Assembly (NCBI GenBank): GCA_021108075.1
Contig: JAIORP010000120.1
Location: 21,557 to 85,556 of the forward strand
Direction of reading: 5' to 3'
Source: Candidatus Omnitrophota bacterium
Lineage (GTDB): Bacteria > Omnitrophota > Gorgyraeia > Zapsychrales > Zapsychraceae
Length of the DNA: 64,000 nt
Part shown: positions 12,401 through 51,801 of the stretch, one piece after another
How positions within the stretch are numbered: position 1 is the stretch's first letter
Layout of the letters: every line of letters begins with the position of its first letter
Program-made: the position numbers and the translations under genes
Notes under the pieces: generated by a model
Told to the model about the DNA's origin: nothing
The model's input: only the letters and a program-made list of their open reading frames with translations
The model's database searches: none

Positions 12401-15400
12401 CTCAGGCACATGGTTGACTCGGGGTTAGTGTCTTCTGCCATATTAGATATCTTTTATGTCGTCGATACACCTCAACAAGTGTTGGATATTGTGGTTACTC
12501 ATTTTGATACTCTCGGGTGGTATGATGACCTCAACCATCTACTGAAATTTGAGGTTGATAGATCAACAGCTCTGTCCTGGCCGTACCTTTATGACGTGAG
12601 TGGAATTCTCATCAAGATGCGGTCTGTGTCCAAACAAAAAGGCTTTAAAGACATGTTGGGATATATGGAAAATTTGGTCATCAGAGACGCCGTCACACAA
12701 ACGCAAGGGAATTTGATCCAGGCCGCCCGTCTGCTGAATATGCATGATCGTTATGTCGAACGCCGTATGGAAGCGCTACGGTCAAAAGCGAAGAATAAAT
12801 TTAATACCAGATATAAATTTTCCATACGTGAGATCCGCCATTTAAATCTACTTTATGCCATGTTAGGTGTCAGGGATATCTATGCTTTGTCCCGCCGGGC
12901 AAGAAGAGAAAGCAAGACGCATTGGCAGTTCGTGCGTGACCGGACCTTTGAGAGGGTCTTACGTGCTGGCCAACTGAGTTATTCCGAGATCAACCTGTTG
13001 TATGATCGAATCCCGGGTTGGACAGAATACATGAAAAAGAAGTTAGACCTGGATGACAGAAAACATCAAAGAAAACGCAATCACAAAGGGAAGAAATCAG
13101 GTGGCACTCTGGCAGGGCGATCACGCCAGGAGGGCAACTGTTTTGAGAAAGCGCTGAAAAAGTTATCTGTAGATGTCTTGGCTTTAAAGAGGTTCTTGAG
13201 TCAAACGGATAAGGATATTTTTGATGGGTATCACATCATTTATGTCATCCCAGTACTTAAGGCCCTTCAACGCGCTTATTCCCAAGAAAATTTGGATAAA
13301 ATTTATCAGGATGTCCTGGTCTCACATCAGGCGTCTTACGGCGTTAAGGCCGACGGTCAAAGACGTGATATTTGGCATGCCATTACACGACGGGAATGGA
13401 TTCAATTATCCATCGCGGAAAAGCAAGAATATATGACCTTTGGTGAATTTACGCGCATGGCCCCATTGGCGCAGGCCTGGTTAGGCGCGGAAGTGAATCA
13501 GCATATTGTTCAAAGGGCTGAGGCGCTCGCTTTGAAACGCGATATTTATGAAGGTTGGGCACAATATGAATTCTCGCCGGAGGAAAGTCTCGTCTTGAAA
13601 AAGGCCTGGTTACGTCTAATGGATCAATCCAAACGTTACGCGCGCTGGCAACCGCTCACAAAAGGCATCATCGCGCGGTTAAAAGCGGAAAAAGCATTAG
13701 GTCAAAATATTGAGATCATAACGCCGTCGCAGGAAGAGCTCTGGACGATGATCATGCAAGTTGCCATGGAAGAAAACATACATTTCCCGTCACCTGACAA
13801 CTTGCGCATTATCACATTGGCCGGCAATAAAGCCCTGCTGGGCGTTGAAGAAGAGGCCTCTCATTATCTTCTGGTCCCTATCGATGAAATTGAAGGATTA
13901 GATCAGTTGCGCCAGCATGACCGGTATGTTTACACTCAGTGGCTTGATCACGAAGTTGCTCGTTTGATTGCCTTGCACAAAGACCGGCAACGTTCAGAAA
14001 AAGACATCACACAAGATTACCCTGTTCATTTATTCATTGATCGAATGAAGATGCTTCGGGATAAAAAAGGTGATATACGTGTTTTCGTCAATCGCCGCAT
14101 AGAACAGTTGGCTTTATTGCAAAAATTCTTTAATGGACAGGTATTAACACAAAGTGACGTTGAAGATGGTTTTAATCATATGGAGATTTACGCGCATGCC
14201 GGGTTGTTAACGCCAACGGGTATTATTAAATTACCCAACTCTCAGAAAGGTCTTAAGATTGTCGCCAAAGGCGAGCATATCGGTGAGTCCGTTTCCTTGC
14301 GCCTCTTTAATGATCCTAATCAGGGCATCATGTGTCAATGTTTGGTTTTTGTTCATGGTGCTGACGGATATGTTTATGAGAGCGCCAATCATTATTTGAG
14401 GGATAAGGTCACGCGTGAGTCCCAGCATTTGAGGACAAGCCCCAGTCGGCTTGACGGCATTGTTACCCTTAATGAGTTAGATCTGTATGCTTACTTCAGG
14501 GGTGAAAAAATATATCCCGTTAAAGACAGCGAGGAAGTTATCACGCGCAGACGAATTGTTCAAGAAGGTGAAACATTTGAACTGCCCAACAAAATTCAAC
14601 CGGCAGGCCGGATTAGGTTGATGTATTTGAAACGACAATATTTGATTAATTTATGCGGGCCAAATGAACAGACGAATAAAACTCCAGTCTTCAAATTCAC
14701 GGGCAATGATAATTTAGGGACCGTCTTGGTCAGTGGCGCTAAAGGATCGCAACCCGGTAATTATTATTATCAAGACGAAGAGGGTGAGTTGCGGCATCTA
14801 CGCGTGAAATCCAGCAGGTACAACCGTCTTATGAGTTTAGCAGAATGGCACGCCATCAGTTTCTTGCTGGGCCGCGCGGACATCAAGGCGATACCAGGGG
14901 AAAATGTTTTTACAACGTTTAGCAAAGTCAAGCCGGATGGATATATCTCCTTGCCGTATTTTGGAAAATTAATGGTTGCTGAAGGCAATTCGGAATATGC
15001 GGCGCGCGACGTGTTCGCCCAGATCGCCCTTGTCAATGATCGTTATTACGGAACAATGCTCAGATGCTGCGTTGAGGGTGTGATCAGCAATTATTATTAC
15101 AAGGACTCGATGACAGGTCATCTGAGACATTTCCGTGTTGAGACATTAGGGCGTTATATCAAATTACGAACAGATCAATTGTGTGAGTTTGATATTTATC
15201 AGTATTTGAGGGGAAAGTCCTTTCATCACATTCCTGTCCGCCCGGATGAAAGCGACAACCGGATGACATCGATTATTTCACGGCAAGTTGTTAAGAATGG
15301 ATATTTCAAGTTTTTTGATATTCAGCCGGTTTATGTGGGAACTGTCTACAATGATCAGCATTTTAAACTATCATTCCAGCGGAATGAAAAGGGCCAAGTC

Positions 15401-18400: not shown

Positions 18401-21400
18401 TATATCCAGAAATTGGTATTGACTGAAAATGTGATGGGCTTTGTTGTTTTACCCGGGCGATTGGGAACACTTGATATCATCAGTGATGATGCCGTTGTTC
18501 AGCAGGTTTATTATTTGGAAAATAAAGAAATGATGTTTAAGCCGATCGTCTTTGTCAACCGCTCATTCTGGAAAACGTTCTGGAGTTTTTGGTTAACACG
18601 GGTGCAGCCGTATATTATGCCGGGAGCGGAAAAGATTTTCTATTATGTTGATACAAAGCGGGAAATCTATCAGGTATTAGAAGAGATCGTTGAAGCCTAT
18701 CGAGGTGCCCGGCGTATTAAGGGTTGGGATTATGACGCCCCGTCTCAGGAAGAAAAGAAGAGCATGACTTCGGATGACCATATTTTGATTTGGCCCGTTA
18801 ACGATTGGCGGGGAGATGAACAAAAATCAACGCTGTCCCACGACCTCCGCGTCAAAGCCGGACAACAGGCGGCGGCAGGCAAGAGACCGGCTGTCAGCCT
18901 TGATAACTCGATGGCAAATTTTAATGCCTTAGAAAAATACCGTTATATTAATTTTTATCATTTTTATTCTGAAATTATTATTCAAATGGGCCAGGGACTT
19001 CTGCGGCTGGGTGTGGACCGTCAACTTATTCATAAAATCTTCTTAGACCGGGCTCCGCATCAATTTGGGCAAGATGTTGGACAAGCGGCTAAATCGGTTA
19101 ATAGTGTCCTGATGGAAACGGCAGAGTATATTTTACACGCCCAGGAGTTGTTATCCGATATCAACATTAAAGATAAATGTGCGCAGGAAAGAATTGTTAG
19201 CGATTTGGTGATTAAGTCCATTGTTCAGCAGGGTGGTCAATTTAAGTTTGATATTGAATGGTTTAAGACACAGATGCATTTGGCCGTATCAGCTGGCATG
19301 TTTAGACAATTGATTGTTCAGGAGATTTTCTTCCAACGACAAAATAAAACGATCCAGGTGATACCAGAGGAAGCCTGGAATAAGATCGCCTTCGCGGTCC
19401 AGAAATTGTTAGAAGAACACAGAGAGGTAAACGGAATTGATACCATTGAGAATATGTGGGCATTATTTGTTTTAGATCTTGAACTTCAGAGGGAAATACG
19501 CATGGATAATAAGATCAGACTCCTTTTAAAGAATATTTTCAGACGTTATTCAAGGCCGTCGAAAGACATGGGCATGGGCGCACATGGCAATATTTATGAA
19601 AACGATGTTCCATTGCTCGAACAGCTCATCCGTGAAGAGAAATATCATGCGATCATGGAATTTGACGGTGTCGTTGAAGTGAAAGGCGTGCGGATTAAAT
19701 GGCGGGAATTAAAAGAATATATCAACGGTGAAAAGAAAGAGTTCATCTACGCCCGTTGGGCTGATCCAACAAAACAGACACTGGAAATTTACTTCTCATC
19801 ACATTCAGCTGTTAAGATTTTTGATAAGTTTATCGCGCATTCATTTGTCCCAGGATACATGCACGGACATTCATTAGAACAGCGGTTACAATTATTGGCT
19901 TTACATGAGATTTTGGAAAAGCGCTTTATCGCGGATGGGTATGCGCCGTGGGTAGCCCATATTCTGGCGGAGGAACGCATTGTCCAGCAACGCGATATCC
20001 GCGTTCATCATAATTATCAAGAGCATGTCTCTGAACGCGGGCATCATTTAGCGTCGGCACTACTTTTAAACGATAAATGTCAAGGACAAGATTTGGTCGG
20101 CCATGAAAACCGACGGAAGCAATTTATTCAAGCTGTTCATGGTGGTCCCTATACAATTTTTCCGTATTATGATGATCAGGAGCAGATGGTCCTGTTTACA
20201 TTTTTCTCCGGGGGGATTTTGTTGCCGGGAAAAATTAAGTCTCAGTCGAAAGAAAAAGACTTTGAGCCATTCCGGACCATAAAAGGCGATAAGGGTACAG
20301 GGTTTGGCATGATTATCAGTAAAAGGATTATTGAAAAACATGGCGGCGCTATTTCTGTTCAAAGCAAATTTGGTGAGGGCACAACAATGTTTGTGAAATT
20401 GCCGATAAGGGCAACTGAGCCTAGGCTGGAAGTTGTAACTGTTAATAATCCTGACGGTGCATTTACCGGGATGAGTACAAAAAATTCGGATGCGAAATTG
20501 GCGGAGCACAAGGAGGATGAAGGGATTAAGATGAAGGTTACGGAGTTTAAAGAGAATGAAACAGCGAGGACATGGGTGAGCGAGAAAAGAAAAGAAGCTT
20601 CAGCCACAGCGCCGCTTTTGCCGGATAATATTGAGACGGTTGTCGTAGAGAACCGGGAAGTGAGTTACGGGTTAAAATATGTTGAAAGAGATGACGACGG
20701 TAAAGCGAGGGTGTATGTAGAACGCCCGTGGCTGGATCGGGTGGATAAATTGCGGAAGATGTATGGAGACAAGTTGGCTGAGCCTATCCTTATTTGCGCT
20801 TTTGTCCATGAATTTACAGGGAAGAGCCATGAGAATAATGTAAGGGCAGAGGGTGTTTATCTGGAGGAATATTTTGCGGACAAAGATTTTAGCAATTTTA
20901 TACCGGCTATTATTAATAGTTTAGAAAATTTGCGAGAACAAGAGATCCTGGAGCCGATAAGTAAAAAGCCTAATATTGTTCAGGACAGTACGGTTTCAGG
21001 CCTGGAGAGTAAGGTTCCGGCGGATTCTGGAGATGTTTCAGGCTCGCCGGAGAGAACGTATAAGTTGCGCGGCAAAGATGGGCTGCTTGCATGGACAGGA
21101 ATAATAACGCAGAGCATAAAACAGAAAGCTGGACAAAAGGATTCATCGGATGGATTTTATAGGGGATTTACAACAGAGCAGGTAGAGGTATTATCCACAC
21201 AGGGGTGTTATTTTGTTGTCTTAAAAAATAGCCCCGCGCATAAGCGGTTAAAGGATTTGTTCAGGAACAGGTATAGTGAGGAGGAGAGAGGGAGAAATGA
21301 GGTGATTATTACAGTGCCGGGGGCTCTTGTGGTTTTCTCGTTACATATCGGGATGCCGAGGGAAGATTTACAGCGAATGTTTCAGGAGAAATGCCGAATA

Positions 21401-24400
21401 GAACGGACGCTTTCAGGGCATGTAGATTTATTAGCAGAATTTTTTAGCACGCCGGAGAGGCGGCGTATTTATAAAGAATTCCTGGGAGAAAGTCATTATG
21501 AAGACCCTGACAATCCGGGGACAGGTATAAAAGAAGAAATTGCTTTAAGAAAATTAATAACAGGGATTATTACAGAAATAAAATTTTCTGAAGCGGTTGT
21601 TTCAGGGAAGGATACTCTTAACGGAAACGCGAGAAGGATTCCGCAGAGTTTTATCAAAGATCTGATGCAATTTTTAATAGAAAATTTTTCAGGAAAAGAT
21701 ATTGTTTCAGAGTCGACAGCGGATCAAATTAAAGGAATATATGAACGTCATGAAATTATCAGTGAGAACGGGACAAAGAAGAGATATCGCGTATTAAGAA
21801 AAAATGTTCCGCAGGTTAGAACAATGTGGGGTGTTGTTGTGTCAGATAAAGATATTTCCCCCTGGGAAACTGTTGATATTGAAGTGAATTTTGAGATTGG
21901 GAGGGATTTAAACAAGGAAGAAATAGAGCGTCTTTTAAGAAGCAGGACAATAGATGTGAGGGTAAAGGTGAAGAGTTACCGGGATGCAAACGGAGATAGA
22001 CACAATACAGAAAAAGAGGAATCTTCAACGCTGAATTACGCGGTAAGGTATGAGGATATCGAAGTAATAGAGATGTTTTATGACGAAGGGGCGACTATGT
22101 GGCGTGGCGCAGTTGAGGAATACAATAATCAACGCGCGCGGAAGGTTCGTTTTAGAATGAAGGTGCGTTTCGCCCCTGTTCCGGGTACGTACACTGTGGA
22201 GGTGTATGTAATACAAAAACAGGGAATAGTCATTGTGGATGATATAGAGGAATACAGGAAAGGGATTGTTAACATAGCGGAGCCCGGGATGTTCACAGAA
22301 GAATTTTTTAGAAAGAGGTTTCCATCGAATTATAGAAAATACATCGGGACACCTGAAAAACAAAAATGGGAGTATAAAAAAGAATTAGTGAAAGAAGTAA
22401 TCCTCTCGTTGTTTGGCAGATATATTAAAGAATGTACAGAAGCAAGGAATAGATACAGAAGATGCAACGCGCTCGCGAAATTAATATATCTGCAAAAGAA
22501 ATATAATACGGCAACAGAGTTATTAGATGGCATTGTTACCCATGAGGATCAGAGGGTGAGGCTTGCAATCGCGGAGGATATGGAATGGTTGCCTGCTAAT
22601 GACGCGTTGGTATATCTTAAGAGGCTCATCAAAGACAAAGATAAGAACGTGAGGGAAGTTGCCCTTGATATAGAGGAGGACATTAGTGATGAAAGGAGTA
22701 ATTTTTATTTCTGGCACTGGATGAGAAATTATTTCATGCCGATGGGCGGGTTTTTAAACAGGACAATAAAGAAAATCAGTAAACAATGTATAGTTGAGGT
22801 TAATGAATTTATAAAACGGAGATTAAAGGATAGCAACCTTGATTTGGAGATGGATACTAAGGAGATATTTACAGAAAGATCAGTAAAGGAATCCTCAGAA
22901 GTTATTCTTAATAAGATAAAGCTTATTTTAGCCGAAGCACAGAGGGGGATTACAGATAAAGATGAGATTGAGCACATGGAGAATATCTGTTTTAAACTGG
23001 AAGGATTTATAAAAGTTTTGGATTCTTTCAATAAAGTGGAAGACCTGATAAGAATAGGAAAAAGGAGGGACGAGAGTATAGAACAGGCATTAACAGAAAA
23101 GGCAGAGTTAATTAAACAGGAGTTTTCTTGTATGGAAAGATTCATGAAGATGTTGCGGCAGGAAGGCGCGATTGTAGCAACATATTTGGAAATTATTAAA
23201 GAAAAACATATTATTATAACAGGAATGATCGATTCGATATTAAACCTTGGCAAAAAACAGGCAGTGCGTACAGAGACGATAAAAGATATTGTTATTAGTT
23301 TACAGTATGTGGAGAATTTAATGAAATTGGAAAGGTTAAAGAAGGCTAAGAAATTAGAGGCGTCGGGAGAATCAGAAAAGGCAGAAAAGTTAAAGAAAAC
23401 CAGCCTTAAGATAACATTTAGCTTTGGTAAAGGCGTGAACCTTAATACGGCAGTAAAGGTAGAAAAGACATTTGTAAGGCTTCTTGGTGAAATGGTTAAG
23501 AATTCAGAAGAGCATGGAGGAGAAAAGGTAACTATTACTTTTGTCCCTAACAAAGACAAGGTTACGATTCTTTATATAGACGATGGAGAAGGACTGGATG
23601 TTAATACAGGAGCAGAGAATATCTTCCTGCCATTATTTAGCGCAAAGGCCAAGATTATTTTAGACAAAGAAAAATGTGATCCAAAAAAGGAAAAATTAAA
23701 TGCAGATATTGTAAACAAAGTATACCTTTTGAGAAAGGGTGTTGAAATCATTGGCGGGCAGGTGGATATTGTCGAGCCAAATGGAAAAGGTTTTCAGTTA
23801 AGGATTACCGGTTTGCCGATTGAGTATGATCCGGAAAGATTTTATGACATCGGCGATATGTATGAATACCTGAAGAAAGAATTTGAAACGGCATTATCGC
23901 GGTTAGAGGATGTTGATGAAGATTTACTGGATACAGGGGATGTTCAGCATCTTGGAATGTTATTAATTCATTCCCTTGAAGAATATCGTGATGCTGTTAT
24001 TAAGGGAAGAATGAGATTTATTTTATCAAGCGCGGAAGAAGTAAAAAAGCAGTTAAACATATTGTCCGAAGAATTAGTAACTCTCCAGCATTCGGATAGT
24101 TACCTGGATGACCCTGATGTCAGGGGTCAAATAGATCCGGTTTTAATAACATTTGATAGGATTTTACGTCAGATAAAGTTAACGTCATTATCGTTAAGCC
24201 ATTCAATGAAAGATGTCTCAATAGGAGAATTTATGCAGAATATGATCAACCGGTTTAACGATGAAGTACAGGATGTAAATGTTAATCTTGAAATAGATGA
24301 GAGGATATTGAATGAGACGATTTTTACATTTTATGACCATCTTGAGGCAGGACTGACGAAACTGCTCTGGTATGCTGCTGCCTTTGAGAAGCCCGAAGGC

Positions 24401-27400
24401 TGTGAGATACAGATGAATGTGCGGCTGAATAAAGAGATGGCGGGGATAGCAAAGGCAGAGCAGGATGCTGAAATGCCGGTTATTTTTGTAGGGGGGCTTG
24501 GAGGTTCCAAACGAAATGAGGCAATACGGTTACTGTCGGGATTAGGGATATTCCTTGAGGTAGAGGTATTTGTAAAAGGCATGAGCCTTCCTGGGGAGAT
24601 AGTCAAAAAGGTAAGAGATGCACGCTGTCCGATGATAGACGCGAAGCATATTGAACATACATGGTTTGGCCTCTGGTGTCTGGATAATCAGTTAAAGGGT
24701 GTAGGGGGGCATTTACAGGTTGTATCCGAAGATTCCGGAACAAAATTTGTATTGTATGTGCCTGTTAATACCACGCCGGAGCTTGTTAAGAAAAAAGAAC
24801 TGGAGGGAGGGCGTTCCATTAATATGGGATTTTTCTCAAAGGTGCTTGCGTATTTTTGCCGGCAGGAAGGGATAGATTCTGATGACAACGATGCCCTTGT
24901 TAAATTATTGCGGGAACTTTATGTGGAAGGATTAAATAAATTTAGAGAAGAACCACTGCCTTTCTGGCGAGAATCCAGTACAGAGCCACAAAAAATTTCC
25001 GGTGAAAATATAAGAGATCAAATTAAAGATGCGATGATGGCTCTGGAAGATTATAAATTGATGGAGAAAATCACAAAGAACCCTGCTGTTCAAAAAGAAT
25101 ATCAACGGATAAATCAGGAAGTAATAAAATATAATAAAGCATTGGGATTTAAAAATGTTGTTTTAAAAGTTAGGGATTTGAGAAATACAGGGCAGCAGGA
25201 CAGGCATGGCCTGGAGGTATATGTTCGCCTTGACGGCAGTTTGCAGATACGTTCAGCCTGGCTGGGACGGCATCCTTCGGCTGTTGGAGAGCAGGATTAT
25301 GCAACAGGTGTAAAGAAAAATGGTATTGCAGTCGACGATGAAGTAAACCGGAAAGAAATTATAAGCATCGACACAGATAAACTTAATCCTCTCGCAATAT
25401 ATTTGACAATACAAACGGAACTTGTCAGAAGAGGATTTTTTTGCCGCAATGAATTTGTAGAGGCTTTGGGTAAGTTTAAAGAGAACGGATTTATTCATGA
25501 AGGGTTGTATCGAAGGTTGCTGCATGTGGTTAGAGGGAAGGTGGAAAAGGTTGAACAGGGTAGGCAGGAGGAAGATCAGTTAATTTCGGATTATTCAAAA
25601 ATCGACCCTGCCATTAATTGGGTAAATCCTGAAGGTGTGCCGGAAGGATTGGAGGGGGCAGAGGAAGGGGCATATTCAGGAGATACTTTTGATACGAGGT
25701 TGAGTGGCGAGGAGATAAGAAACGGTAGCTTTTATTTGAGGGGAGCGCTCGGGGCAGCGTTTGCAAGGGCAGTGGCGCAAAGGGCATTGGCGCAGGCAGG
25801 GGATGGAGCTGTGGAAGAAGTGGAAGGAAAGATAAGGAACAAATTTGTCGGCTATATTATTAAGAAAAATAATAAAGGTGAATTAGTAAGCATTCTCACC
25901 GCCTACCACAGAAACAGCGATACAATCCTCATCAGCAAAGCACTCCCAGCAATAATTGAAGCACTTAATAAACATCCTGAAATAGGGCGTAAAAATGGAA
26001 AACTCGGCGCGGGAGATATCCTCGCACAGGATCTTTGTGACCACGAATTGTGGCATAGAGGGGAAGGCAGGTCAGGAGCTAAAGCAGAAAATGAAAGAGA
26101 GGCAATAGATATCCTTCGCCTCCATGTTCTGGCAAGAGAGAACGGTATCGACATTAACACCTTTGCAGATGTCCTGGTTGAGATGAACGTTATTACGCCG
26201 GAGTTTGCAGGATTGTTGAAGAAGCCGGATGTAACTAAAGGGGTGCCGGAAGGATTGGAGGGGGCAGAGGAAGGGGCATATTCAGGAGATACTTTTGATA
26301 CGAGGTTGAGTGGCGAGGAGATAAGAAACGGTAGCTTTTATTTGAGGGGAGCGCTCGGGGCAGCGTTTGCAAGGGCAGTGGCGCAAAGGGCATTGGCGCA
26401 GGCAGGGGATGGAGCTGTGGAAGAAGTGGAAGGAAAGATAAGGAACAAATTTGTCGGCTATATTATTAAGAAAAATAATAAAGGTGAATTAGTAAGCATT
26501 CTCACCGCCTACCACAGAAACAGCGATACAATCCTTATCAGCAAAGCACTCCCAGCAATAATTGAAGCACTTAATAAACATTCTGAAATAGGGCGTAAAA
26601 ATGGAAAACTCGGCGCGGGAGATATCCTCGCACGGGGTCTTTGTGAACGCGAATTGTGGCATAGAGGGGAAGGCATGTCAGGAGCTAAAGCAGAAAATGA
26701 AGTGGTAGAACGGAAAGGGCAAATAATAACAAGTCTGAAGATAAAAGGTAAGAGGCGACCTGTTAAATATAGATTGTACTGGAGAAAAGGCAAATTAATC
26801 TGTTCATCATTGGAAGATATTTCTCCTGAAAAAGCAAGAGAATTGGGGGTAGATAAGGTTAGTCAATTTAAAACTGATGTTAATGGGGTATTATGTGTTT
26901 TAGAAGAAAAAATATTTTTAACAAAGAAGTACAAAAACAGGGAAGGGTATGCGGAGGTTAATGAGGCTGGTGTAGTTTCGAAAATAATATTAATGAAAAC
27001 AAAAAGAGATAAGGAGGTAGAGATTGGGGTAGAACGGGAAGGGGAAATTATAACGGGTTGGAAGATAAAAGGTGAGAAGCATTCTGTTAAATATAGATTG
27101 TACTGGAGGAGGGGTAAATTTATTTGTTCATCATTGAAAGGTTTTTCTTTTAAAAAAGTAAGAAAATTGGGGGTAGATAAGGTTAGTCAGTTGAAAGTGA
27201 ATGCTTTGGGGGTATTGACCGTGCTTGGTGAGGGTATACCGATAGGGACTTGTTATGCAGAAAGAGAGGGTTTTGCTTTGATAGACGGTTCGGGAGTACG
27301 GGAGATAACATTGATTGCAACAAGGCGGGAGCCGGAAGAGAAAATAAAAATCAAAAGAGAGGGTAGAGTTATTAAAAAATTTGAATTTTATTTTCAGGGA

Positions 27401-30400
27401 ACTGAAAGTGTAAGAGAAGTTGCATATATTTCTTTAAGGCGGGAAGATGGGCACCTGATATCATATTCTTCCTTATGTGATCCTTATTTTATAAGTAGGA
27501 AAATTAAGAGAAATAAATTCAGCGGTATAGTAGAGGGCATGGAGGTGACTAAATTCGGGTGGGTAAGCATTGGGATAGATAACTTTTTTATTCCGCAGAC
27601 ACGCGGCTGGGCTGTAGATATTAAGTATGATAACGGAGAGGCAGTAAAACTTTATCTGATTAATCCTGAAAGTGGAGAAAGATTAGAAAAAGATGCGGAA
27701 GAGGTAAAGGTAGAAACAAGTGACGAGTGGACAGAAGAAAGAAAAGCAATGTTTAAGAGAAAAAAGGGTATTATTCTTGATAGGGCTAAAAGATATTGTA
27801 ATTATGCAGGTATATATGGAATAAATTTCCATGAGCTTGTTTCAGAAGGAGAAAAAGCATTAATGGGAGCAATATTGCGTAACTATAAACCTGGAGAAAT
27901 TAGATATGAATATGCAGTTCTTTGTATAAATGGAGGGATGTTAAACCTGATTGATAATGAGAGAAAAGCAAGAAATATCAGAAAGCAGGACAGCAGGAGG
28001 ATAGCCTGGTTATACAAAACAATGCAAGAGCTGGAAAAGGAATTAAATAGAGAACCTGAGGCTCAGGAGATATGTGAGGCGATGGATATAAGTATGGAAG
28101 AGTTATTTGAGATACAGAAAATTCGGGGAAGGTTAGCCACCTCTAGTATGGATTTTCCGACCGGAGGGAGAGGGGAAGAATACAGGTCAATGCATGAAGT
28201 AATAGGCGATAAGGCAATGTTAGCAGATGAGATAATGGAGGCGTCAGAACGGGAGGCAGCCATTAGAGATGCAATGAGTAGGCTGTCGGAAGAAGAAAGG
28301 GAATATATCAGGATGCTTTTTGGATTTAATGAAGAGATATATTCAGCGGAAGAAATTGCTCGGTTAGAGGGAATTACCTTGGAGAAATTTAATGTCATTA
28401 AATTCGAAATATTTGCGAAAATGGGAGAATATGTAAAGGAGTATAGTTCGCATGGATCGAGGATTAAAGGAAGAATTGAGCAAGATTCAAAAATCGACCC
28501 TGCTATCAATTGGATGGCTCCTAAAGGTGTGCCGGAAGGATTGGAGGGGGCAGATGAAGGGGCATATTCAGGAGATACTTTTGATACGAGGTTGAGTGGC
28601 GAGGAGATAAGAAACGGTAGCTTTTATTGGAGGGATTTGTCAGCGGGAGCGCTCGGGGCGGCGCTTGCAAGGGCATTGGCACAGGAAGGGGATGGAGATG
28701 TAGAAGCAGGGGAAGGAAAGACAAGGTACAAATTTGTCGGCTATATTATTAAGAGAAATGATGAAGGTGAATTAGTAAGCATTTTCACCGCCTACCACAG
28801 AAACAGCGATACAATCCTCATCAGCAAAGCACTCCCATCAATAATTGAAGCATTTAATAAACATCCTGAAATAGGGCGTAAAAATGGAAAATTCGGCGCG
28901 GGAGATATTCTCGCAGAGGCTCTGTTTAAACATGAACTGTCGCATAGAGGGGAAGGCAGGTCAGGATCAGATGTGGAAAAGGAACAAGACGCAAAAGATA
29001 TCCATTGCCACCGTGATTTGGCAAGAGAGAACAGTATTGACATTAATACCCTCGCGGATGTCCTGGTTGAGATGAATGTTATTACGGTGGCATTTGCAGG
29101 GTTGTTGAAGAAGCCGGACATGATTCCGCAGTCAGAGGTGAAAGGAGACAGGGAAGAAATTGTTTTGGAACAAAGTGGATGGGCCTGCGCGGCCTGTGGA
29201 AAATCTGTCGATGGTTTGATCCAGCGATGGGAAGAGACCATTATTGAAAGGAATGACCTGCAGGCGCTCAAAGCCCGGGTGAAGACATCAAGAACTGTTT
29301 ATGAGACGACATTAGACCATACGGGTGTTGATGCGCGTTATCTACGCGTTGGATCATTTATTTTAATCGATCGATCTGTAGATCAAGCGCAAGCGTGGCA
29401 GGCGGTATTACCCCATAACGTCATTTTAATCGAACGACCATTGGAGTATGACACATACATTGTCTCTATGATCGCCGCGCTGTTGGATCTGGCACAGGAA
29501 AATATTTTGAATAATGCTGTTGTGGAAATCCACGGTGTTGATACCGGATTGATGGTTTATGTGGCCTTGCGTTTGGGAGCAAAGCGCGTGGTTGGGATTG
29601 ACCGTGGAGAAGAAGCCATTCAACAAACGGCACAGTTGCTGAGTGACCATCATTACCGGGGGGCTGTTTTAACTGAAGAAGACTGGTTCACTTATGCGAG
29701 CGAACAGGATGAGGATTATGTCCTGGTTCAAGGGGAGTTAAAGAATTGGTATGCGGTATCGTATCAGCAACGTCAAAATTTACGCGGTCAAAAGGAGTAT
29801 ATCCGTCTCAATGATACGGGGCCGCATTATTCCATTCATCAAGACGCGATGCGAGACATGTTAAGAGACCCCGACGCTGTTGCCATCGTGCTTGGTAATT
29901 ATATTAATTCATCGCCTTTGGCCCGATCGCAAACCCCCGGCGGTTTAAAATCCTTAGGGGATGAAGTCGATATTTCAGCCCTGCAGGCCATCGGTTGGAC
30001 AGTGGAACAAATTGCTTATCCGACAAAATATAAAGATTTTGTGACGCTTGTTGCTCAAAGGGAGCGGAACGCGTCAAAGAAAAAATTGGCCGATCACCCG
30101 GTCGAAAATCTTGGCCGACAGTCCGGGGATCCCGGGTTTCTCACCGGCCGGCCAGTAACCGTACAGTCCATTCCACAACCGCGTAAAGTTTTTGTCGGAG
30201 GAGGTGAGCGCGTCAATCAAGAGGATTTCGTTCCTGTTATCACAGACAGCATCAAGCAAGTCGCGCAAACACAATTAACCCGGTTATTAGATCGATATCA
30301 TTTTGATTCCAATGCCGTCTTTTACCGTTTCCATCAGGGAACAGATCCAGCGCAAACGCTTGAACAGGAACGCCAACAGCTGATCGATGCTCAGGGTGGA

Positions 30401-33400
30401 ACATGTTTGGGTTTATCCTCTATGTTACAAGAGAACATGTTGACGGCATTATTTCGACCGGACTTTGCCAGTGACTTATCGCGCCGTCTGGGATCAAGGG
30501 TTGATACGCATATTTTAGAACATGATGACCGTCAATACCGTTTCGTCATTACTGTCGATGGCAAAAATTTTGTCATTCATGGGTATTTAATCGGCGCGTT
30601 AGCGATTGATCAATTCAATCACCGTTCCAGATCCCGCGTGTCTGCCCGGGAGAGTGAATATTATCGTTACCTGCATTATGCTAATATACTGAAAATTTAT
30701 AGTGAGCAGGAGTCGGTTGCCGCGTTTGTCAGCGATCCGGGCTTTGGTGTTCATTATCTCCTTCCATTAAATGAATCCGTTATGGGGTTACGCGCTCAAG
30801 TCAGGGTCCGGCCGTTAGCGCGCGATGAATGGCCTGTCTATCAATATGATAACCGTGAACTGGCGTGGTTCAACCGTCCGGCTTACCGGGTTTTTGGTGA
30901 AAGCATTCAGAATAAGTTGTTGATTTTAGAAGGGGTGTCCGCGCGCCCAATGGTCTTTGTTGATCAACTGTCTGAATCTGTTTACCGACGACGTTTTTAT
31001 CAAGGGTATCTCGCGATCAGCTTAAATAATATTCAGAGGATTATGCGTTTTGAAGCGAAGACGGGCAGAGTCAAGGTATTGGCCGAAGTATCCTTTGGCT
31101 CCGAACGAAGTCCGCGGTTGACGTTTAAGCTAAGATATTACAACGCGCAAGGAAAACGAATGAAAGTGGTCTTAAATGAAAAACAATTGCGCTTAGCGCT
31201 TGAAAACATGCGTACTTATCGAGAAGGGCGGGATCAAACAGTTTTGCCGAGACACAGCGCGATGGCGCTCGAAGCCGGAGAACTATTGGGACAAACACGA
31301 CAAGAGTGGGAAGACCGTATTGCCGTTATTTTAGATCAATTCGCATACCGTAAGGAAAAGACATTCAGGACTCAATCCGGCCTGTCTGAGAGCACTGTGC
31401 CGGAAGGCGCGTGGGATGTGGATCAGCGCACATATGTCACAGAAGATGACCGTGTTTACGATAAATTTGATTATCAGGATCTGGTCGAGCAGGGTTATAC
31501 CGTCTATAGGAATCATCAGGTCGAACTGGTATTCTTATTACGTAAAGACGCGTCGGTCGTCTTGATCGATGTCATTGCCGTGACAGATCGTCAAGCCATG
31601 GAATACATGGGATGGATCCATGCGAGCTTCCGGTCGCCGTTAATGCTTGACCGGTCCTTACATGATGTTGATTTACGTTTCACTTTGGCCACGGTTGAAT
31701 TCTTATCCGGACTGGACGCGAATATACTGGACGAGATTTATCACATGCCGCGGCAACAAGTGGCCTTGTTTGTCGATCTGTCCTATCAGAATGTTAAGAA
31801 ATACGCGCAATTTTATAATATTGATAAAATATTGATGAGTTCGGTCTTGAACCTCGCGCAGCACTCGGGATTTGAACGCTTCACCGTCAATCCGGCCCAA
31901 AATAAATACGACTATTACCGCGAACGTTTTCACGCAGAGTCCTCCGGTCATTTTACCCGGAACATGCTGGATATGGTGTATTACCTGGCGATTGACATTA
32001 CCGAACAGATCGATATGCCATATATTCTTTTTGATCGTGATCATTTGAACCGGCTCCGATATTTGCTTGTTGAACGCAGCCATCCAGCGCTTGATACTGT
32101 TGTCCGTGTCATTATTCGCGAACGCGCGACAGGACGTTATTTGGTGTTGCAAAAATTAGCGGCCTCAGTCGCTCCGGGCTGCTGGGAAACTCCTGGTGGA
32201 AACGTCGATACATACGAGACATGGCGACAAGCGGCCTTAAGGGAAACAGAAGAAGAGACCGGTTTTGATATTGATTGGGTCGAGGCATTGAATCCAGGGC
32301 AACCGGTGATTTGCTGTTTTGACCGGTTTGTCCGCAGAATTTATGGTTTTTATACGGAGATGGATCGCGTGCACGAACCGTCTATTAATAATAAGTTCAA
32401 AGAAGATGGAACATGTGAAGATAAGCATGCCGCAGCCAGTTGGAAGACGGAGAAAGAAATAAGAATACTTATGGACATGAACCCATCTGAACAGGCCTCC
32501 ATGCTGAAGACCAGCCGGGTTGTTTTTGATTTGCTGTTGTCCGATGGCGTTATCGACATGGAACGGGTGTCAAGAATCGTTCATTGTGTTCGTGATTTAC
32601 CGCGAAATTGCGCTTATAAGAATGTCTCCACGAAAGAAAAATCTGATTTATTAACACATCTCCTGATTCAGATCCACCGGAAGCAAATAGATGAGGTTGT
32701 CGAGCGGCAATGGGATGACGACGGAAACATTCAAAATTATTACATCAAGGCCGGAGCATTAAAGACTGCTCTGCAATCTAAATTGTATGTTCAACCCGTT
32801 AAGGATAACTATTGGCATGTGGTCACAGATAAAGCCCAGTTTTATCGTGGGCCGGAAGGAACGGATAACCCTTGGACGATTCAAGACCTTGATGATGACG
32901 ATTACGTTGGAGCACGCAAACGTAAAAGACGTTCCAGACACGATAAAGAATCCGTTGTTAAATTAGAGATGGAGAAAAAAGCACAGCCGGATCATCAGAT
33001 TGAATACATTCAAGAACGCCGGATCATCAGCCGTAAGTTTATCACCCGCTCCATCAAAGAATTGGATATGTATTGGCAGATGTTTGATGTGATTTATCCG
33101 GCGATAGCCATTTATGGTTCAGCTCGAATCCCATCTGCTGTGGGCAGAGACCTGGCCAAACGTTTTTCAACATTAGGCTACGCGATCACAACCGGTGGAG
33201 GACCGGGTTGTATGGAGTCAGTCAACCAGGGCGCGTTAGAAGGCCTTCGACGGTTATCTGTTGGTTTAGGCCTGAAATTGCCGTATGAAGATAAATTAAA
33301 TGACTATGTTAACATCCCATTTGAATTTCAATACCTTTTCACGCGGTTATTAGCCTTCCTCACATTTAATCGCGCCCATCTGCATGTCAAAGGCGGGCTG

Positions 33401-36400
33401 GGCACATTAAATGAATTCTTTACCGTGACAGCGGCCAAAGAGATCGGTTTTATCTCGGGAGATACACCAATCGTCCTGATCGATAAATGGATGTGGGGTG
33501 TTTTTGATCAATTGATTCGGCAATGGGATGATCGCGGCTTTAGCTCTTACCGTGCGCAGGATATGTATCAACTATACGGCGCAAAACAAAGATCTCAAAT
33601 TGTCCATGATGTCCATCAGACCGCGAAGCATATGCAACGCCAGAACGTGTTATGTATTAACACCGAACTGATTTTTAGGGAATTGAATAATATTAACCGG
33701 CGGCTGAAGGGGCTTGGACCGACAGTCGGTATTATCGGTGATGACCGCAGTATACGCGAAGGAGAGTATGACTTCGGCGTCGCTGAAAGATTGGCGTCAG
33801 TTTTGGCAAAAGAAGGTCTTTCTATCCTGCGCACCAGTGAACGGGGGATCGGCGACGCTGTGCATCGGGGATTTGTCGATGCCCGCCGTGTTGCGCGGCA
33901 GGCTCCGTACAGAGTCAAAGAGCGTTTGATCGGTACAGCCCATGACATCAACGGAAATGGGAATGGTACAGCCCATACATTAAAACTATCATATGACTTT
34001 TTAAAGAAGATCGTGCTGAGCAGTCCATACACGGATGCCTTGATTGTCTTCCCGGGCGGTTATCACGTGATGGATGTTTTGATGGAAGAAGCGTGCTTGA
34101 TCAAGACCCACAAGATCGCTCCCCGGCCGATAATCCTCATGAACAGCAGGTATTGGACCCCATGGCGTGAAGATTTTCTGCGGGCTAAAATGGTCGCTGC
34201 CAAAACAGCCAATCATAAGGAAATCAATTATTTACATATCGCGGATACGCCGGAACAGGTCAAAAAAATTCTGATGCCGCATTTGTATCAGCAAGGTTGG
34301 TATGGTGAACAGGCCAAGACCTCAAAGTCCAGGGCGATCGTCTCTAACATCGGCAAGGTTTCTTCGAAGAGAAAGCAGCGTAATAAAAGCAAGAAGAATC
34401 AAAATGGCGATAAGAACGATCATTCGATCCGTCCGGTTGTCCAACTTCTTATCGGTCTATTGTTATTCTGGTGGCCGAAAGTGGGTAAAGGTTTTAGGCG
34501 TGTTGGTACTGAAACGTTCAGGGCGCGGAACGACTATTTATTAACATCAGCAACTTATCGCGGCCCACCATGGGTGAAGGTTATCGCGGCCTTTGTCCGA
34601 GCTTGGCTTTTACCGGTTGCCCGGGGCGTTGATGCGGACGGTCAGGTGCGCTGGTATGTGCCGCGATCGTACCGAATTTTAAATCTGTCCTATCAGACTC
34701 AATATTCGATTGACCGGCATGAAAGACAATATTCCGCACGTCCTATCCTCGGACTCTTTTTAGGGGAATTTAAAGGCCTTCGGGCCCAGGTACAGGGATT
34801 CCTCAATAAAGAGTGGATGTTTGAATATTTAGATCGCTTAGACATCATGCAGTATACACAGAAAGATAGCTTATACGGACGAGGATTATCAGTGCCCCGT
34901 GAACACGCAACTTCTTTATTCGACCGGCTCGTTCGGTCCAAACATCTGCACGCGTCTTCGGATGTTTTAGGGCGTGAATATCAACGTGTTTTCAGCCAGT
35001 ATTCTGCCTTCTGGGCTGATCATATTCTCGCGAGCCATGCTTTGATATTATCCGGGGCAAAAAATATCCGGCGGGATTCTGTTACGGTTGTCGGTGTTGG
35101 CGCGGCAAGGGAGATTCCTTTAACGGAATTAGCGGTGCTATTTAATACAGTCAAGATTATTGATATGGATGACTCAAGTTTGAGAGATGCCTACCTATCT
35201 GTTCCGGCCCAGGCTGTTGATGAAACCGGGGTACTATTGCGGTCGAAAATTCAGATGATTCAAAGGGATATAACAGATGATCAGATGCTTCAGTTAGCGC
35301 GGGCAGGATTGAAGATTATCGAACAGAATACAGAACCTCAAAAAGCTTATTTAGAGTTGGTCAAATTGTACCGCGACACAAAATTGCAACCGGTGTCCGC
35401 AATGGATGACGATTTGGCCGCCTCCTATATTGTTTCTTCATGTGTTTCCAGCCAAATCATGTGTTATCCCGTTGATTTTATCTACCAAAAATTCTCTAAG
35501 AAATTCGGCCTAAAATGGGATGACCTGGAAGCATGGAATAATATTTTGGAAAAAGATCAGGGATCTGCGCTATTGACGGTTTACCACGACGCGTTTGAGC
35601 GACTTCAGTTGCAGGTCTTCAGCCAGCATGTCCAACTGCTGCAGTCCATCGTCCATCCAGAAGGGCATATTTACTGGTCTGATACGGTCATATCATTACC
35701 GCTGCTCCAGAGCATGAAAAAGGAAGATATGGGGCTGTTTTATGACCGGTACTTCAGGGCGATCAAACCTGATATCGCAAGGATGGATGCTGACAGCGCG
35801 GCGCAGGCAAAGTTTGAAGATCGTAAGCTTTATTACCGCCGAAAACATCCGTCATTGGGCGAAGACCGGATCGCAGCCATTGCTTATATATCATTGATGG
35901 GTGAACAGATTCTTCCATTTAAGAAAGAATATAAGGGCATCTGGACTTTGATGAAAATAGCGCCAAAGGTTTCGACATCTGCTATCGGCCACATGCTGAA
36001 TCAGGAACAACTGCAACAGCTGGAGTGTATTTTAGGAACACCTGACAGCCGCAGAGACTGGTTCTGGGTCGCGAATCCATTTAATGTTTCCCACGGAGAG
36101 TCAAACGGCGCTTTCCTTGTTCAATCCAGATTGTTTACAGCACGGGATAAAAAAGCACTTCTCTCAGACAAGGCGTCGAGTGACCGGTCCGCTCTGGTTG
36201 AGCAAGAATTCTCCATGGAAGTCGAAGACCCCGGCCTGTTTGAAGAACAGATGAGTTGTACCGCAAAGAATGGTTGGTTCTGCGCGGCGTTACCGGATAT
36301 GTCCGGAAAGGTGGCGGTCATTCGCCGGTCAGGGATCGGGAAGGCGAAAGCCTTATCGGAGATCGAACAGATTATCCGTCAGGAACAATACTTACAGTTC

Positions 36401-42400: not shown

Positions 42401-45400
42401 ACCAGTCTCGTCCATACGTATTTTTTATCATTGCGTTTGAATCAGACTGATTTGCCGAGCGTACTCATTTCCAATATCGGCCCGTGGGCTTGGACAGGGG
42501 ATGTATCCAATAAGGATTCCATTGATTTATTGGCGGCGTTGAAGAATGTTCAAACATTTATTGCCAGCGGCTATGACTGGGATCATACCACGATGATTGG
42601 AGCAGACCATGAATACATCCGTCCACTCGGTTTCAAAGAATTAGACTTTGTTCAATGTCAGCTCGGGCACAAGGAATTGCTGACCTGGATGGTTAGCAAG
42701 ACAGAACCGAGCTCTGTTAAGAACGAAGAATATTTCAAATATATTAAAGATTGCGACTTGGACAATCTTCTGACGGCCAGCAATGTCTACCGGTATTTAG
42801 AGGAAGAGATTGATCCATCATTGGCCGTAGTCCTCCGTTTTGCTGCAGACAAGATAACCGGCGCTGAGTTGATGACGCAGATCGTCTTTATCCCGTCCGA
42901 TGGTTTATTCAAGGAAAGAGTGCTGTTGCGCAGCGCGTTTCTCCAAAAGCATTTGCCACTTGCGGTCCAAGGACAATTGTTCATTGAACCAACGGTCAAT
43001 TATCATATGTTGGCACATGCAAACCATTCCAAAGCGCTGTCCTTAGCTGACGCTGATCCAAATATTTTGATAGGTCCTCGTCAGGAAGAAGATTTAATCA
43101 GTGATTATCCTGAAGAGAGTTTAGCTCCGTATTGGACGTGGCTCGCTCCTGTCGCGCGCGCCTCGGTTGAATCGAAATTCCATCACGCCTTACGACCGAT
43201 TATCCCACTGATGTTAAGTGTATTGCAATACGTGAAAGTCCCTGGAGCGAAGCGATTAGCAAAGATCGGGATGGAAACATATCGTGTGAACAAAGAATTT
43301 TTCAGGGAGCATCCTTATTTACGTGGTCCACCTTGGATCCGGGCCTTATTTCAGCCTGTTGCCAGAGGGTTTGACCACGATAATGCCATCTGTTGGCAAT
43401 TGCCGTATCCGTACATTAAGAAAATCAAACATTCTTCACGGTTTTTCATTGAGGTTCATGAACGTCAAATATTCGACATTGAAGTCCCCAAACAATTCAG
43501 ACGCCGTGTCTTGTCACAGATCGCGGCTGCCGTCCTGCGTTTTATCGGCGAGATTAAAGCCTGGGTTTATTACTTCAGGAATTACAAATCCTTGCTCAAA
43601 CAATATGTTCATAAAGAAGAAAAGAGATCAACAGTTGTTGACCGGTTTATTTTAGACTTTAAACCATTGACAGACATGACGCCACAAGAACAATTGTTGT
43701 ATGCCCGGGCGAATACGGAAGCACGTGTTAAGCGCAAGGAAACATGGATGCGGGAAAACGCCCAGGAGGTTCAGCGCCGAGACGGTGAGACTCTTATGGC
43801 CTGGGTCAAACGTGTGTTGTATGACTTGAACTGTGAAGTGAGTGAAGCGGACTTGGACATTGTTGAAATATCAGACCAGAAACTTGTGACGTCAAACTGT
43901 AACAACTGTCCGATCCTTGACGCTTGTGAGAATCTGGGACTTGATACACACTTCGTCTGTAAAGAAATTATGCATAAACCATTTGCCCGTTTGGTGGAAC
44001 TCATGGACCCGCGCCTGACATTTGACCGGGATTATGTCTATGGGTTACGACCGCAAGCTTTGAGCTGTATTGAGATTATAACGATTGATGAAAGCAAAAA
44101 AGACAACAATCACAACGGCCGTCCTAATAATGGTCAACATACCCGGGTGATTAACCGCAAAGACATTCTTCCTTTACTTTTTGGGAATTGTTTATTGAAG
44201 GGGCTTTTGGACTTGGAAGCCTATGTCCAACTGGATAATATTTATAAACATATTTTTACTTATGATGGTCCTGAAAAAATCATAAAGATCATTACGGATG
44301 ATCACGGGCAAGAACGGCTTTTGGTCAAGAAGGATTATATCCAGAGATTCATCCCCGAGGACATAAGAGATAAGCTGATGATCAAACCAACCGCTTATGG
44401 ATATCATGTCCGAGTCGTTGATGATGTTCCTGCCTACGAGCAGGAAGACTATCAAGCGTTCAGGTTGATGCCCGATGGAATATTTCTGGGGATAGATGAT
44501 GCATCAGAAAACACGAATGAGTCAGAGGCGCCTGCGGCACCGCTGAATGTTGTTGGTCCAGAGGGTCCTCCGGACGATGAAGACGATGACCGGATTCCTT
44601 GGTGGTGGTTTTTGTTAGCTTTCATCATGTGGGGGCTATTACTTCGCAAGCATATTTTTCAGGAACAAGACTTTACAAATCCAGATCCATTATTGAAAAG
44701 AGTTGAAACCGTATATTATCGCGCACCGCTGTTAGAGCCGAGGCCAAGGAATCCAAGATTAAGGTTTATCGACGGCATATTCAAGAAGTACGCACCTGTT
44801 GTTGATCCGACCCCTGCAAAATGGCCATTCCCGGCAGATAAAGAAAGGTTTCCGGAGACCGTAATTCCGGGGCATATCCTTTCGGACGTGCGTATCCGCA
44901 AGATGCCCCCCAGGATCCTCGTCCAGCCGTATACGGTCTTTCCAATGCTGTATATTCAGCGGGAGGTCGATCAAATGGGTCTGCCGCAGTTTGGGCCAAT
45001 GCCCCCGAATACTTTTATTGATGTCCGTCCTTATAATTTTGATTTCTTTTTCTTATTCGTGAAACTCATGGCGATCGGGTATGGCAGTTATTCTGTTGTC
45101 ATATTAGGGTCCATCATGATGATTTTTTTGCCAAGAAGTTGGATGGACTTATCACCGGTTTTTCTTGTTATTGAGTTTGCGACAGCTTGGCGGAGGAAGA
45201 TACAAAATGTGATCAGACCGCTTACGTCTGCACGCTATCAAAGACCGGATTATCGGTCATTGTGGAACCATGTTTTTGGAAATATGTATTTAATGACTAA
45301 AAAATTTCTTATGTCGAGATCCCTGACCGAAGATATGAAGAATCAGCGGTTGATCAAAACAACCTCTGACGGAGGTCGGGATGTGTCTGACAATGTTCCT

Positions 45401-51776: not shown

Positions 51777-51801
51777 CGTTTAATTATGGGAGGGACTTAT
51801 T

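Follow-up and report, generated by a model that had tools for sequence, protein, structure and literature searches.

What has become of a sigma factor that is built into the interior of a giant protein? Sigma factors are usually regarded as free, exchangeable subunits of RNA polymerase (RNAP), yet in a Candidatus Omnitrophota bacterium a complete sigma fold is predicted to lie deep inside a protein of at least 22,700 residues. The segment that encodes it belongs to a 64,000-nucleotide (nt) stretch, hereafter the window (assembly GCA_021108075.1, contig JAIORP010000120.1, positions 21,557 to 85,556 of the forward strand). The function of the giant proteins of Omnitrophota is not known, and the module provides a concrete, testable handle on their biology. 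Most likely, it is no longer a promoter-specificity factor, because most of its −10 and −35 contact residues are lost and its amino acid sequence drifts almost neutrally.

The module is internal to a single forward open reading frame (ORF; nt 2–46675, + strand) that accounts for 15,549 amino acids (aa) within the window. There is no in-frame stop in nt 2–25, and the reading frame thus continues past the window's 5′ boundary. On the source contig (ENA ERZ26872899, NODE_24, 100,871 bp), which derives from a Candidatus Omnitrophota metagenome-assembled genome (MAG), the gene call yields a product of 22,742 aa. Because it runs to the contig end, this length is a lower bound. At least about 7,200 N-terminal residues of the giant protein lie outside the window, and residue numbers are given relative to the window, with aa 1 at the ATG at nt 26.

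Is the segment a sigma factor at all? A custom sigma hidden Markov model (HMM) delimits a sigma-70-family module comprising regions 2.1–4.2 at aa 9239–9466 (nt 27740–28423, + strand) and finds no second one in the window part of the giant protein. Sigma domain 2 (regions 2.1–2.4; nt 27740–27970, aa 9239–9315) has an intact 2.2 motif, ELVSEG..ALMGA, and replaced −10 contacts. It is followed by sigma domain 3 (regions 3.0–3.1; nt 27971–28141, aa 9316–9372), the region 3.2 linker or “sigma finger” with an intact S-M-D-x-P-x-G motif (nt 28142–28240, aa 9373–9405), and sigma domain 4 (regions 4.1–4.2; nt 28241–28423, aa 9406–9466), all on the + strand. The helix-turn-helix (HTH) of domain 4 reads ITLEKFNVIK, as compared to the canonical VTRERIRQIE, and the region 4 HTH peptide EEIARLEGITLEKFNVIKFEIFAKM is encoded in frame with the giant ORF from nt 28349 onward. 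An earlier inspection of the letters alone, hereafter the sequence-only reading, had described a sigma-70-family module with this HTH, a region 3, and a weaker region 2. The module is there as described; its extent needs correction, since the true start at nt 27740 lies ∼50 nt upstream of where that reading began it.

The individual regions are recognized by Pfam to different degrees. Sigma70_r3 scores 29.5 bits, above its gathering score of 25.3, and Sigma70_r4 scores 20.4 bits, below its gathering score of 24.1, although region 4 is aligned in all full-length profiles. Sigma70_r2 has no match in the module at E ≤ 0.01, and region 2 was thus rightly called weaker; full-length profiles and sigma factors in the PDB still align through it (TIGR02393 from position 3, SigA from residue 124).

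Among the NCBIfam models, the best match is RpoD_Cterm (TIGR02393; 63.8 bits, E = 1.7e-17, profile positions 3–225 of 238), followed by RpoS (60.1 bits), WhiG (51.8 bits), FliA_WhiG (50.8 bits), and SigBFG (47.0 bits). The module stays below every curated cutoff among the 25 listed sigma models (of 39 matched), and the superfamily model TIGR02937 is not reached either (35.9 versus 42.9 bits). A search with phmmer against PDB sequences retrieves 65 sigma chains, the best being residues 124–356 of Bacillus subtilis SigA (7ckq_F; E = 1.4e-13). An exhaustive phmmer search of 1.84 billion representatives gives 5777 matches at E < 1e-3, mostly of 22–32% identity; among the matches listed, those inspected or named are sigma-70-family proteins or carriers of such a module. 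Other searches were less productive. A word-indexed homologue search with the module returned no match, and the same search missed a 61%-identical relative (MCK5082754.1, see below) that is present in that collection; a scan of GTDB genomes found nothing, and two metagenome scans found only ordinary sigmas of 28–35% identity.

The AlphaFold2 (AF2) model of the module, predicted from an 80-sequence alignment, has a predicted local distance difference test (pLDDT) score of 87.7. It contains the helices of sigma2, including the three long ones, and those of sigma3 and sigma4; the 3.2 linker is modeled with low confidence, as expected of a linker. The best 50 Foldseek matches listed from the PDB are sigma chains or sigma-containing RNAP complexes and models, all with a probability of 1.00, and include 5ipl_F. 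The module is thus predicted to keep the sigma fold. The segment is a genuine sigma-70-family module, far beyond chance, and its translation product forms part of the giant polypeptide.

Which kind of sigma factor is it? As judged from sequence, the module has the extent of a group-3 sigma and is closest to the C-terminal part of group-1/2 sigmas. With the latter (RpoD/SigA, RpoS), which provide its best profile and structure matches, it shares the domain order (2.1–2.4, 3.0–3.1, the 3.2 finger, 4.1–4.2), structural residues, and the 2.2, 3.2, and 4.1 motifs. In contrast to them, it lacks region 1, scores 63.8 bits against a cutoff of 354, has replaced DNA contacts, an acidic sigma4, and a ratio of nonsynonymous to synonymous substitution rates (dN/dS, or omega) of ∼0.8, and, rather than being a free subunit, lies within a protein of at least 22,742 aa, with thousands of residues on either side of it. 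The assignment to a FliA/sigma-28 type, made in the sequence-only reading, does not hold. The module does have the sigma2–sigma4 extent of FliA/WhiG factors without region 1 (positions 24–202 of the 224 in TIGR02479 are aligned), but the 50.8 bits fall far short of the cutoff of 189.6 and rank below the RpoD and RpoS models. A scan of the window for sigma-28-type promoters gave no exact match; the near-matches are mostly intragenic, with a marginal excess, and do not amount to a sigma-28 promoter signal.

Is the module truly embedded, as had also been claimed? Self-BLAST and alignments reveal two families of flanking repeats, R1 and R2, in the order R1a, R1b, R2a, R2b, R2c, sigma module, R1c. 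R1a (nt 25556–26233, aa 8511–8736, + strand) is an orphan module of ∼226 aa with the sequence HELWH at nt 26042–26056. R1b (nt 26237–26701, aa 8738–8892, + strand) is a truncated tandem copy with 98% DNA identity to R1a, and R1c (nt 28466–29122, aa 9481–9699, + strand) is a full copy, 74% (BLAST) to 80% (MAFFT) identical to R1a, with HELSH at nt 28931–28945. The R2 copies, of ∼105–117 aa each, occupy nt 26702–27685 (+ strand): R2a extends to nt 27013, R2b spans nt 27014–27334, and the divergent R2c spans nt 27335–27685. In protein coordinates, the first two fall within aa 8888–9107, and the third ends at aa 9220. The repeats, the internal position in ORF 2–46675, and the presence of HExxH motifs nearby, which are those of the flanking R1a and R1c, all agree with the sequence-only reading.

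The whole cassette belongs to a purine-rich, E/K/G-rich block (nt ∼20250–29400, + strand), in which the GC skew is 0.3–0.58 as compared to ∼0.1 elsewhere. This block of ∼9 kb has sharp edges, a positive AT skew, and a glutamate content of 10.7% (5.9% elsewhere); it spans two HATPase_c modules, HEAT repeats, the R1 and R2 repeats, and the sigma module, and it stops with R1c. It may have been acquired in frame and have a history of its own.

Near-identical repeats invite suspicion of a short-read metagenome assembly in which a free-standing sigma gene was chimerically joined at R1. The cassette does lie between such repeats, given the 98% DNA identity of R1a and R1b, and an independent Logan contig of the locus breaks off within R1c and leaves the cassette uncovered, which shows that the repeat region is hard to assemble. 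Nonetheless, a chimera is very improbable: the frame is continuous through both junctions, the purine-rich composition reaches ∼7 kb upstream of the cassette and stops with R1c, the module is not bracketed by a start or a stop codon, and a second Omnitrophota MAG independently has a sigma module inside a continuous ORF. The latter, the partial hypothetical protein MCK5082754.1 (P0001), is encoded on a 1580-bp contig and is the only close relative of the module (61% identity, E = 9e-92). In its ORF, which is open at both contig ends, the sigma module is preceded by 179 aa of R2-type sequence and followed by 88 aa. It shares the arrangement of the R2b end, R2c, and sigma module and diverges wholly ∼15 aa past sigma4; no R1 is found there, and R1c is absent from the corresponding place. 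Thus, the embedding is independently confirmed, and what lies downstream of the module is shown not to be conserved.

In the window part of the giant protein, a simple hydropathy scan locates transmembrane (TM)-like segments near the N-terminal 3000 aa and in the C-terminal 3300 aa and no convincing TM helix between ∼aa 3100 and 11460. The description of the host as a giant membrane-associated protein is therefore apt, with the TM-like segments elsewhere than the module. The TM-free stretch of ∼8000 aa holds the sigma module together with RelA/SpoT-type HD, LOG, HATPase, S-adenosylmethionine (SAM) methyltransferase, and NUDIX domains, and the module would accordingly sit in a long soluble run of cytoplasm-type enzymes, a probably cytoplasmic location on the grounds of domain content and hydropathy.

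Can the module still read a promoter? Conserved columns were defined as those at least 80% conserved in 78 ordinary sigmas (n = 57). The module retains 26 of them and its orthologue MCK5082754.1 retains 28, as compared to 41–57 (median, 53) in ordinary sigmas. A profile made from ordinary sigmas only gives the module 149 bits and held-out free sigmas 269–412 bits. The losses cluster at the −10 and −35 contacts, and the individual changes are given in E. coli sigma70 numbering. In regions 2.3 and 2.4, these are F427R, S428Y, T429E, W433L, W434C, Q437G, T440L, and R441N, such that only Y430 is retained among the −10 recognition and melting residues (F427, T429, Y430, W433, W434, Q437, T440, and R441). 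The orthologue differs again at the same 2.3/2.4 positions (S, S, K, F, Y, R, L, and R). The conserved P453 of region 3.0 is lost, and the −35 residues of region 4.2 show R584L, R586K, R588N, and Q589V, with E585 retained. Sigma4 carries a net charge of −5, as compared to about +4 in E. coli region 4. Thus, the question raised by the sequence-only reading, whether the residues contacting −10 and −35 DNA are conserved, is answered in the negative: on residue comparison, the module has lost most of those by which canonical sigmas read and melt the −10 element and read the −35 element. What it retains are structural residues and the core-contact motifs of canonical sigmas, namely ELVSEG..ALMGA (2.2), S-M-D-x-P-x-G (3.2), and RMLFG (4.1).

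Is the sequence still under selection? Between the module and its orthologue, the Nei-Gojobori method gives proportions of synonymous and nonsynonymous differences (pS and pN) of 0.243 and 0.199, respectively, and a dN/dS of ∼0.79; the ratio is ∼0.69 for the whole R2 plus sigma cassette. Locally, it is 0.35 in region 4, 0.72 in region 2.2, 2.1 in the 3.2 linker, and 4.2 in region 3 (46 codons), where the values above 1 rest on 33–46 codons and are not significant. Differences in the cassette are evenly spread over the codon positions (0.21/0.18/0.22). For calibration, MutS at 62% amino acid identity has a saturated pS of 0.81–0.83 and codon-position differences of 0.32/0.19/0.62. The amino acid identity to the orthologue, 0.605, is close to the 0.574 ± 0.019 obtained when substitutions are placed at random, and 6% of the simulations reach the observed value. 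Paralogous modules within the giant have omega values of 0.2–0.65, with ∼0.2 for a pair of LOG modules; the gene evolves fast as a whole, with the sigma cassette toward the top of the range. Thus, the module does not show the purifying selection expected of a sigma with an essential or regulatory role, and comparison of the two sequences indicates an almost neutral drift of its amino acids. Hypermutation by a diversity-generating retroelement was considered as a cause of the high dN and is ruled out by an ordinary mutation spectrum (transition/transversion ratio of 1.5) without adenine bias.

The sigma segment is not dead, however, since its frame, its length, and, for the most part, the hydrophobic character of individual positions are maintained. 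In a neutral simulation with 265 random substitutions, a mean of 12 stops arises and none of 2000 runs stays stop-free; the other two forward frames contain 42 and 48 stops. The alignment to the orthologue is gapless across 436 codons, and 81–87% of hydrophobic positions remain hydrophobic. A domain can evidently stay in frame and folded even as its sequence undergoes almost neutral drift, which is a warning against reading function from domain matches in giant ORFs.

These results are brought together in a reading to which we give about an even chance: a sigma gene was captured and has become a weakly constrained module, a passenger or structural part of the protein, whose binding to the RNAP core is at most residual. 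Capture would have occurred in frame into a fast-evolving giant gene, presumably as part of the ∼9 kb purine-rich block, and the captured module would have stayed translated and folded under weak constraint. Any residual activity would be non-productive binding of the RNAP core via the retained 2.2, 3.2, and 4.1 motifs. Such a history agrees with published accounts, in which the giant ORFs of Omnitrophota are poorly conserved and evolve fast (10.1101/2023.11.21.568195; PMC10066038).

Several points weigh against this reading. The dN/dS values derive from one pair, with an orthologue fragment of 1.58 kb, and from the Nei-Gojobori method, and a mean omega near 0.8 could also arise if a conserved core is averaged with a surface under positive selection. 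Region 4 taken by itself has an omega of 0.35, and the family-conserved columns are 71% identical to the orthologue as compared to 57% for the rest (p = 0.08). Non-canonical DNA-contact residues are no proof of lost DNA binding, as divergent sigmas can read divergent promoters. The confident folding, the lack of indels, and the retained 2.2, 3.2, and 4.1 motifs argue for some remaining function. In addition, the cytoplasmic location derives from domain content and a simple hydropathy scan, with at least 7000 aa of the N-terminal part outside the window.

The combination of retained core-contact motifs (ELVSEG, S-M-D-x-P-x-G, RMLFG) and lost DNA contacts is also what a sigma mimic would display that acts as an effector or as a decoy, the latter having been suggested in the sequence-only reading as well. 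The module would then be kept for binding the RNAP core or another sigma partner without promoter recognition, an unlikely but tenable explanation. It would sequester the cell's own RNAP or dock it at the giant, or act on the RNAP of a prey or host after delivery, and its fast evolution would reflect an arms race. The confident predicted fold and the maintained frame and length are consistent with such a role, as are the local dN/dS values above 1 in region 3 and the 3.2 linker, were it not that they are not significant on so few codons. The many nucleotide-centered modules of the giant (HD, LOG, NUDIX, methyltransferase, helicase) resemble those of polyvalent conflict proteins (PMC5512222), and a role in predation has been proposed for Omnitrophota giant proteins (10.1101/2023.11.21.568195). 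However, RNAP binding is predicted from the retained motifs, and region 2.2, with its omega of 0.72, is no more strongly constrained than the rest. No secretion or delivery signal is tied to the sigma segment, PADLOC finds nothing, and the single prey documented for a relative, an archaeon, lacks a sigma-dependent RNAP (PMC10066038).

A third explanation, raised by the sequence-only reading, is a tethered regulator released by proteolysis. In this case, the module would be inactive within the membrane-anchored giant, and cleavage, for example by R1, would free it for a regulon with an unusual promoter. The set of sigma2–sigma4 is complete and includes the 3.2 finger, and the R2 plus sigma cassette is bracketed by R1 copies, both full copies having an intact HExxH. 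The window part of the giant contains six HExxH motifs as compared to 0.66 expected by shuffling, four of them independent. Peptidase cleavage of Omnitrophota giant proteins has been suggested (10.1101/2023.11.21.568195). In a low-confidence model, R1 is predicted to consist of a helix, three strands, a helix, the HExxH helix, and a Glu-containing helix, an order that fits the zincin-like core of peptidases proposed to process multidomain polypeptides (PMC5512222); with a pLDDT of 42.8, which makes the R1 model unusable, and no peptidase homology, this is a lead only.

Against release by proteolysis stand the replaced DNA contacts, the acidic sigma4, the near-neutral evolution, and the missing sigma-28-type promoter signal in the window, as well as the properties of R1 itself. 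R1 has no Pfam or PDB-sequence match and no homologue in the word-indexed search, which is to be read cautiously given the 61%-identical sigma relative that it missed, and comparison by hhalign and profiles yields nothing beyond the motif between R1 and the other HExxH modules of the giant. R1 is not recognizable as a peptidase by these comparisons and is at most a putative one. In R1b, the first histidine of HExxH is lost (RELWH), and in the orthologue no R1 copy follows the sigma module. Taken together, these findings make a proteolytically released sigma factor improbable.

The two tandem R1 copies (nt 25631–26095 versus 26237–26701) reflect a very recent duplication, and three of their nine differences cluster at the HExxH motif (DHELWH to ERELWH). 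The six HExxH sites of the giant are at aa 1080, 1316, 2016, 2876, 8673, and 9636 (nt ∼3263, 3971, 6071, 8651, 26042, and 28931), several of them ∼20–30 residues past a short strand-like stretch, and they may be minimal zincin-like modules scattered along the protein, although they show no detectable homology to one another. For R2, there is no Pfam or PDB-sequence match, and the only matches are insignificant (YpeB, E = 0.16).

How does the module compare to known cases of a sigma domain within a larger polypeptide? The pro-sigmaK and pro-sigmaE of B. subtilis are proteolytically activated. Together with the polyvalent proteins processed by zincin-like peptidases (PMC5512222), they are similar to the giant in concept, as a sigma or effector domain is part of a larger precursor, with HExxH modules nearby. 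However, the pro-sigmas have only short pro-sequences and are fully canonical, whereas the role of the giant's modules in cleavage or as peptidases is putative. The polyvalent proteins are phage and plasmid proteins, and the text that describes them does not contain the term “sigma factor” (PMC5512222).

A closer parallel is MBF0486236.1 (P0071; GCA_015233145.1, JADFYI010000024.1, 1–10747), from the same phylum, in which sigma modules are likewise internal to a large multidomain protein. Annotated as “sigma-70 family RNA polymerase sigma factor”, it has at least 3581 aa, being cut by the contig start, and contains four full sigma modules, additional sigma4-only modules, and a C-terminal ASD1 domain (Pfam PF22848); three PilZ genes adjoin. 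It differs from the giant in its much smaller size, its PilZ/ASD1 context, and its several modules, some of which are nearly canonical in 2.4 and 4.2. A 2087-aa metagenomic protein (P0026) has two embedded sigma modules. Against the ordinary-sigma profile, the embedded modules of these two proteins score about half as well as free sigmas (269–412 bits); those of large Omnitrophota proteins such as MBF0486236.1 reach 94–165 bits, as compared to 149 here. A shared architecture of the three proteins was considered and rejected, as only the sigma module is common to them and no similarity extends outside it. Embedded sigma modules are thus not unique to this giant, and the architecture is a variant of a known domain family. 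The giant and MBF0486236.1, with its four modules, demonstrate that giant proteins can draw on sigma domains as building blocks.

The mimicry explanation can be extended to a recurrent strategy of Omnitrophota (cf. MBF0486236.1). A polyvalent giant effector, tethered or processed by its HExxH modules, would carry a sigma mimic that binds the RNAP core without promoter recognition and shuts down or hijacks the transcription of prey, host, or the cell itself, under diversifying predator–prey selection. This elaboration is speculative and quite improbable.

The giant protein itself resembles the “Archaeovorins” of Omnitrophota (West-Roberts et al. 2023), including the giant protein of Velamenicoccus archaeovorus. 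They have in common the phylum, the giant size, the many TM helices, and a fast evolution, and the giant contains divergent methyltransferase, NUDIX, Lysine_decarbox, HATPase_c, and HEAT_2 domains, the last four of which are also among the divergent domains described for this class of proteins. The features by which Archaeovorin-type proteins are recognized (origin, giant size, TM helices, and a glycosyl/sugar transferase with methyltransferase and NUDIX) are all found in it. In contrast, no SecA_DEAD or C39 domain is seen in its window part. The published giant-protein set was delimited by a size threshold above 30,000 aa (10.1101/2023.11.21.568195), and sigma domains are not mentioned in three published accounts of Omnitrophota giant ORFs.

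Across the giant ORF (nt 2–46675, + strand), Pfam recognizes Bac_transf, HD_5, HEAT_2, HD_4, Lysine_decarbox/LOG in three regions, two HATPase_c domains, NUDIX, and an AAA_11/AAA_12 helicase. The HD_4 is of the RelA/SpoT type, and the methyltransferase matches are weak. The HATPase_c domains upstream of the module were considered as anti-sigma kinases of the RsbW/SpoIIAB type and rejected, as Pfam gives no HATPase_c_2 or anti-sigma signal. A relation to defense systems (MzaA) was also dismissed, with only a weak generic NCBIfam match and nothing found by PADLOC.

Internal duplication is not confined to R1 and R2. Paired LOG/SLOG double modules (Lysine_decarbox plus LDcluster4) are duplicated at aa 3732–4168 (nt ∼11219–12529) and aa 10993–11428 (nt ∼33002–34309), with 47% identity and an omega of ∼0.2, the strongest constraint measured in the giant gene. 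A third, more divergent copy lies between the two, at aa ∼5790–6220. At the C-terminus (aa 14761–15546, nt ∼44306–46663), a TM-containing module of ∼100–240 aa occurs in three to four repeats, with mutual identities of 32–58% and omega values of 0.5–0.65. Two further HTH-like stretches are apparent by eye, GNLIQAARLLNMHDRYVERRMEAL, of the Fis type (window aa ∼4220–4250, nt ∼12683), and SVTEIAQVFNFSEEEIEKKIKLANRQIW, which is sigma4/LuxR-like (aa ∼5327–5351, nt ∼16004). Neither has a Pfam match, and with the sigma HMM both have independent E values of about 1, below significance.

Downstream of the giant ORF, the window encodes GntR, an ABC ATPase (deposited as MCD4780659.1), membrane proteins, MutL, MutS, and a CheC-like protein; the MutS is 61–62% identical to those of Omnitrophota-type MAGs. 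In the interval 51159–54816, a weakly exosortase-like membrane protein of 205 aa is followed by a 1004-aa polytopic membrane protein with a VIT domain, and the two could form a sorting or anchoring pair downstream of the giant gene.

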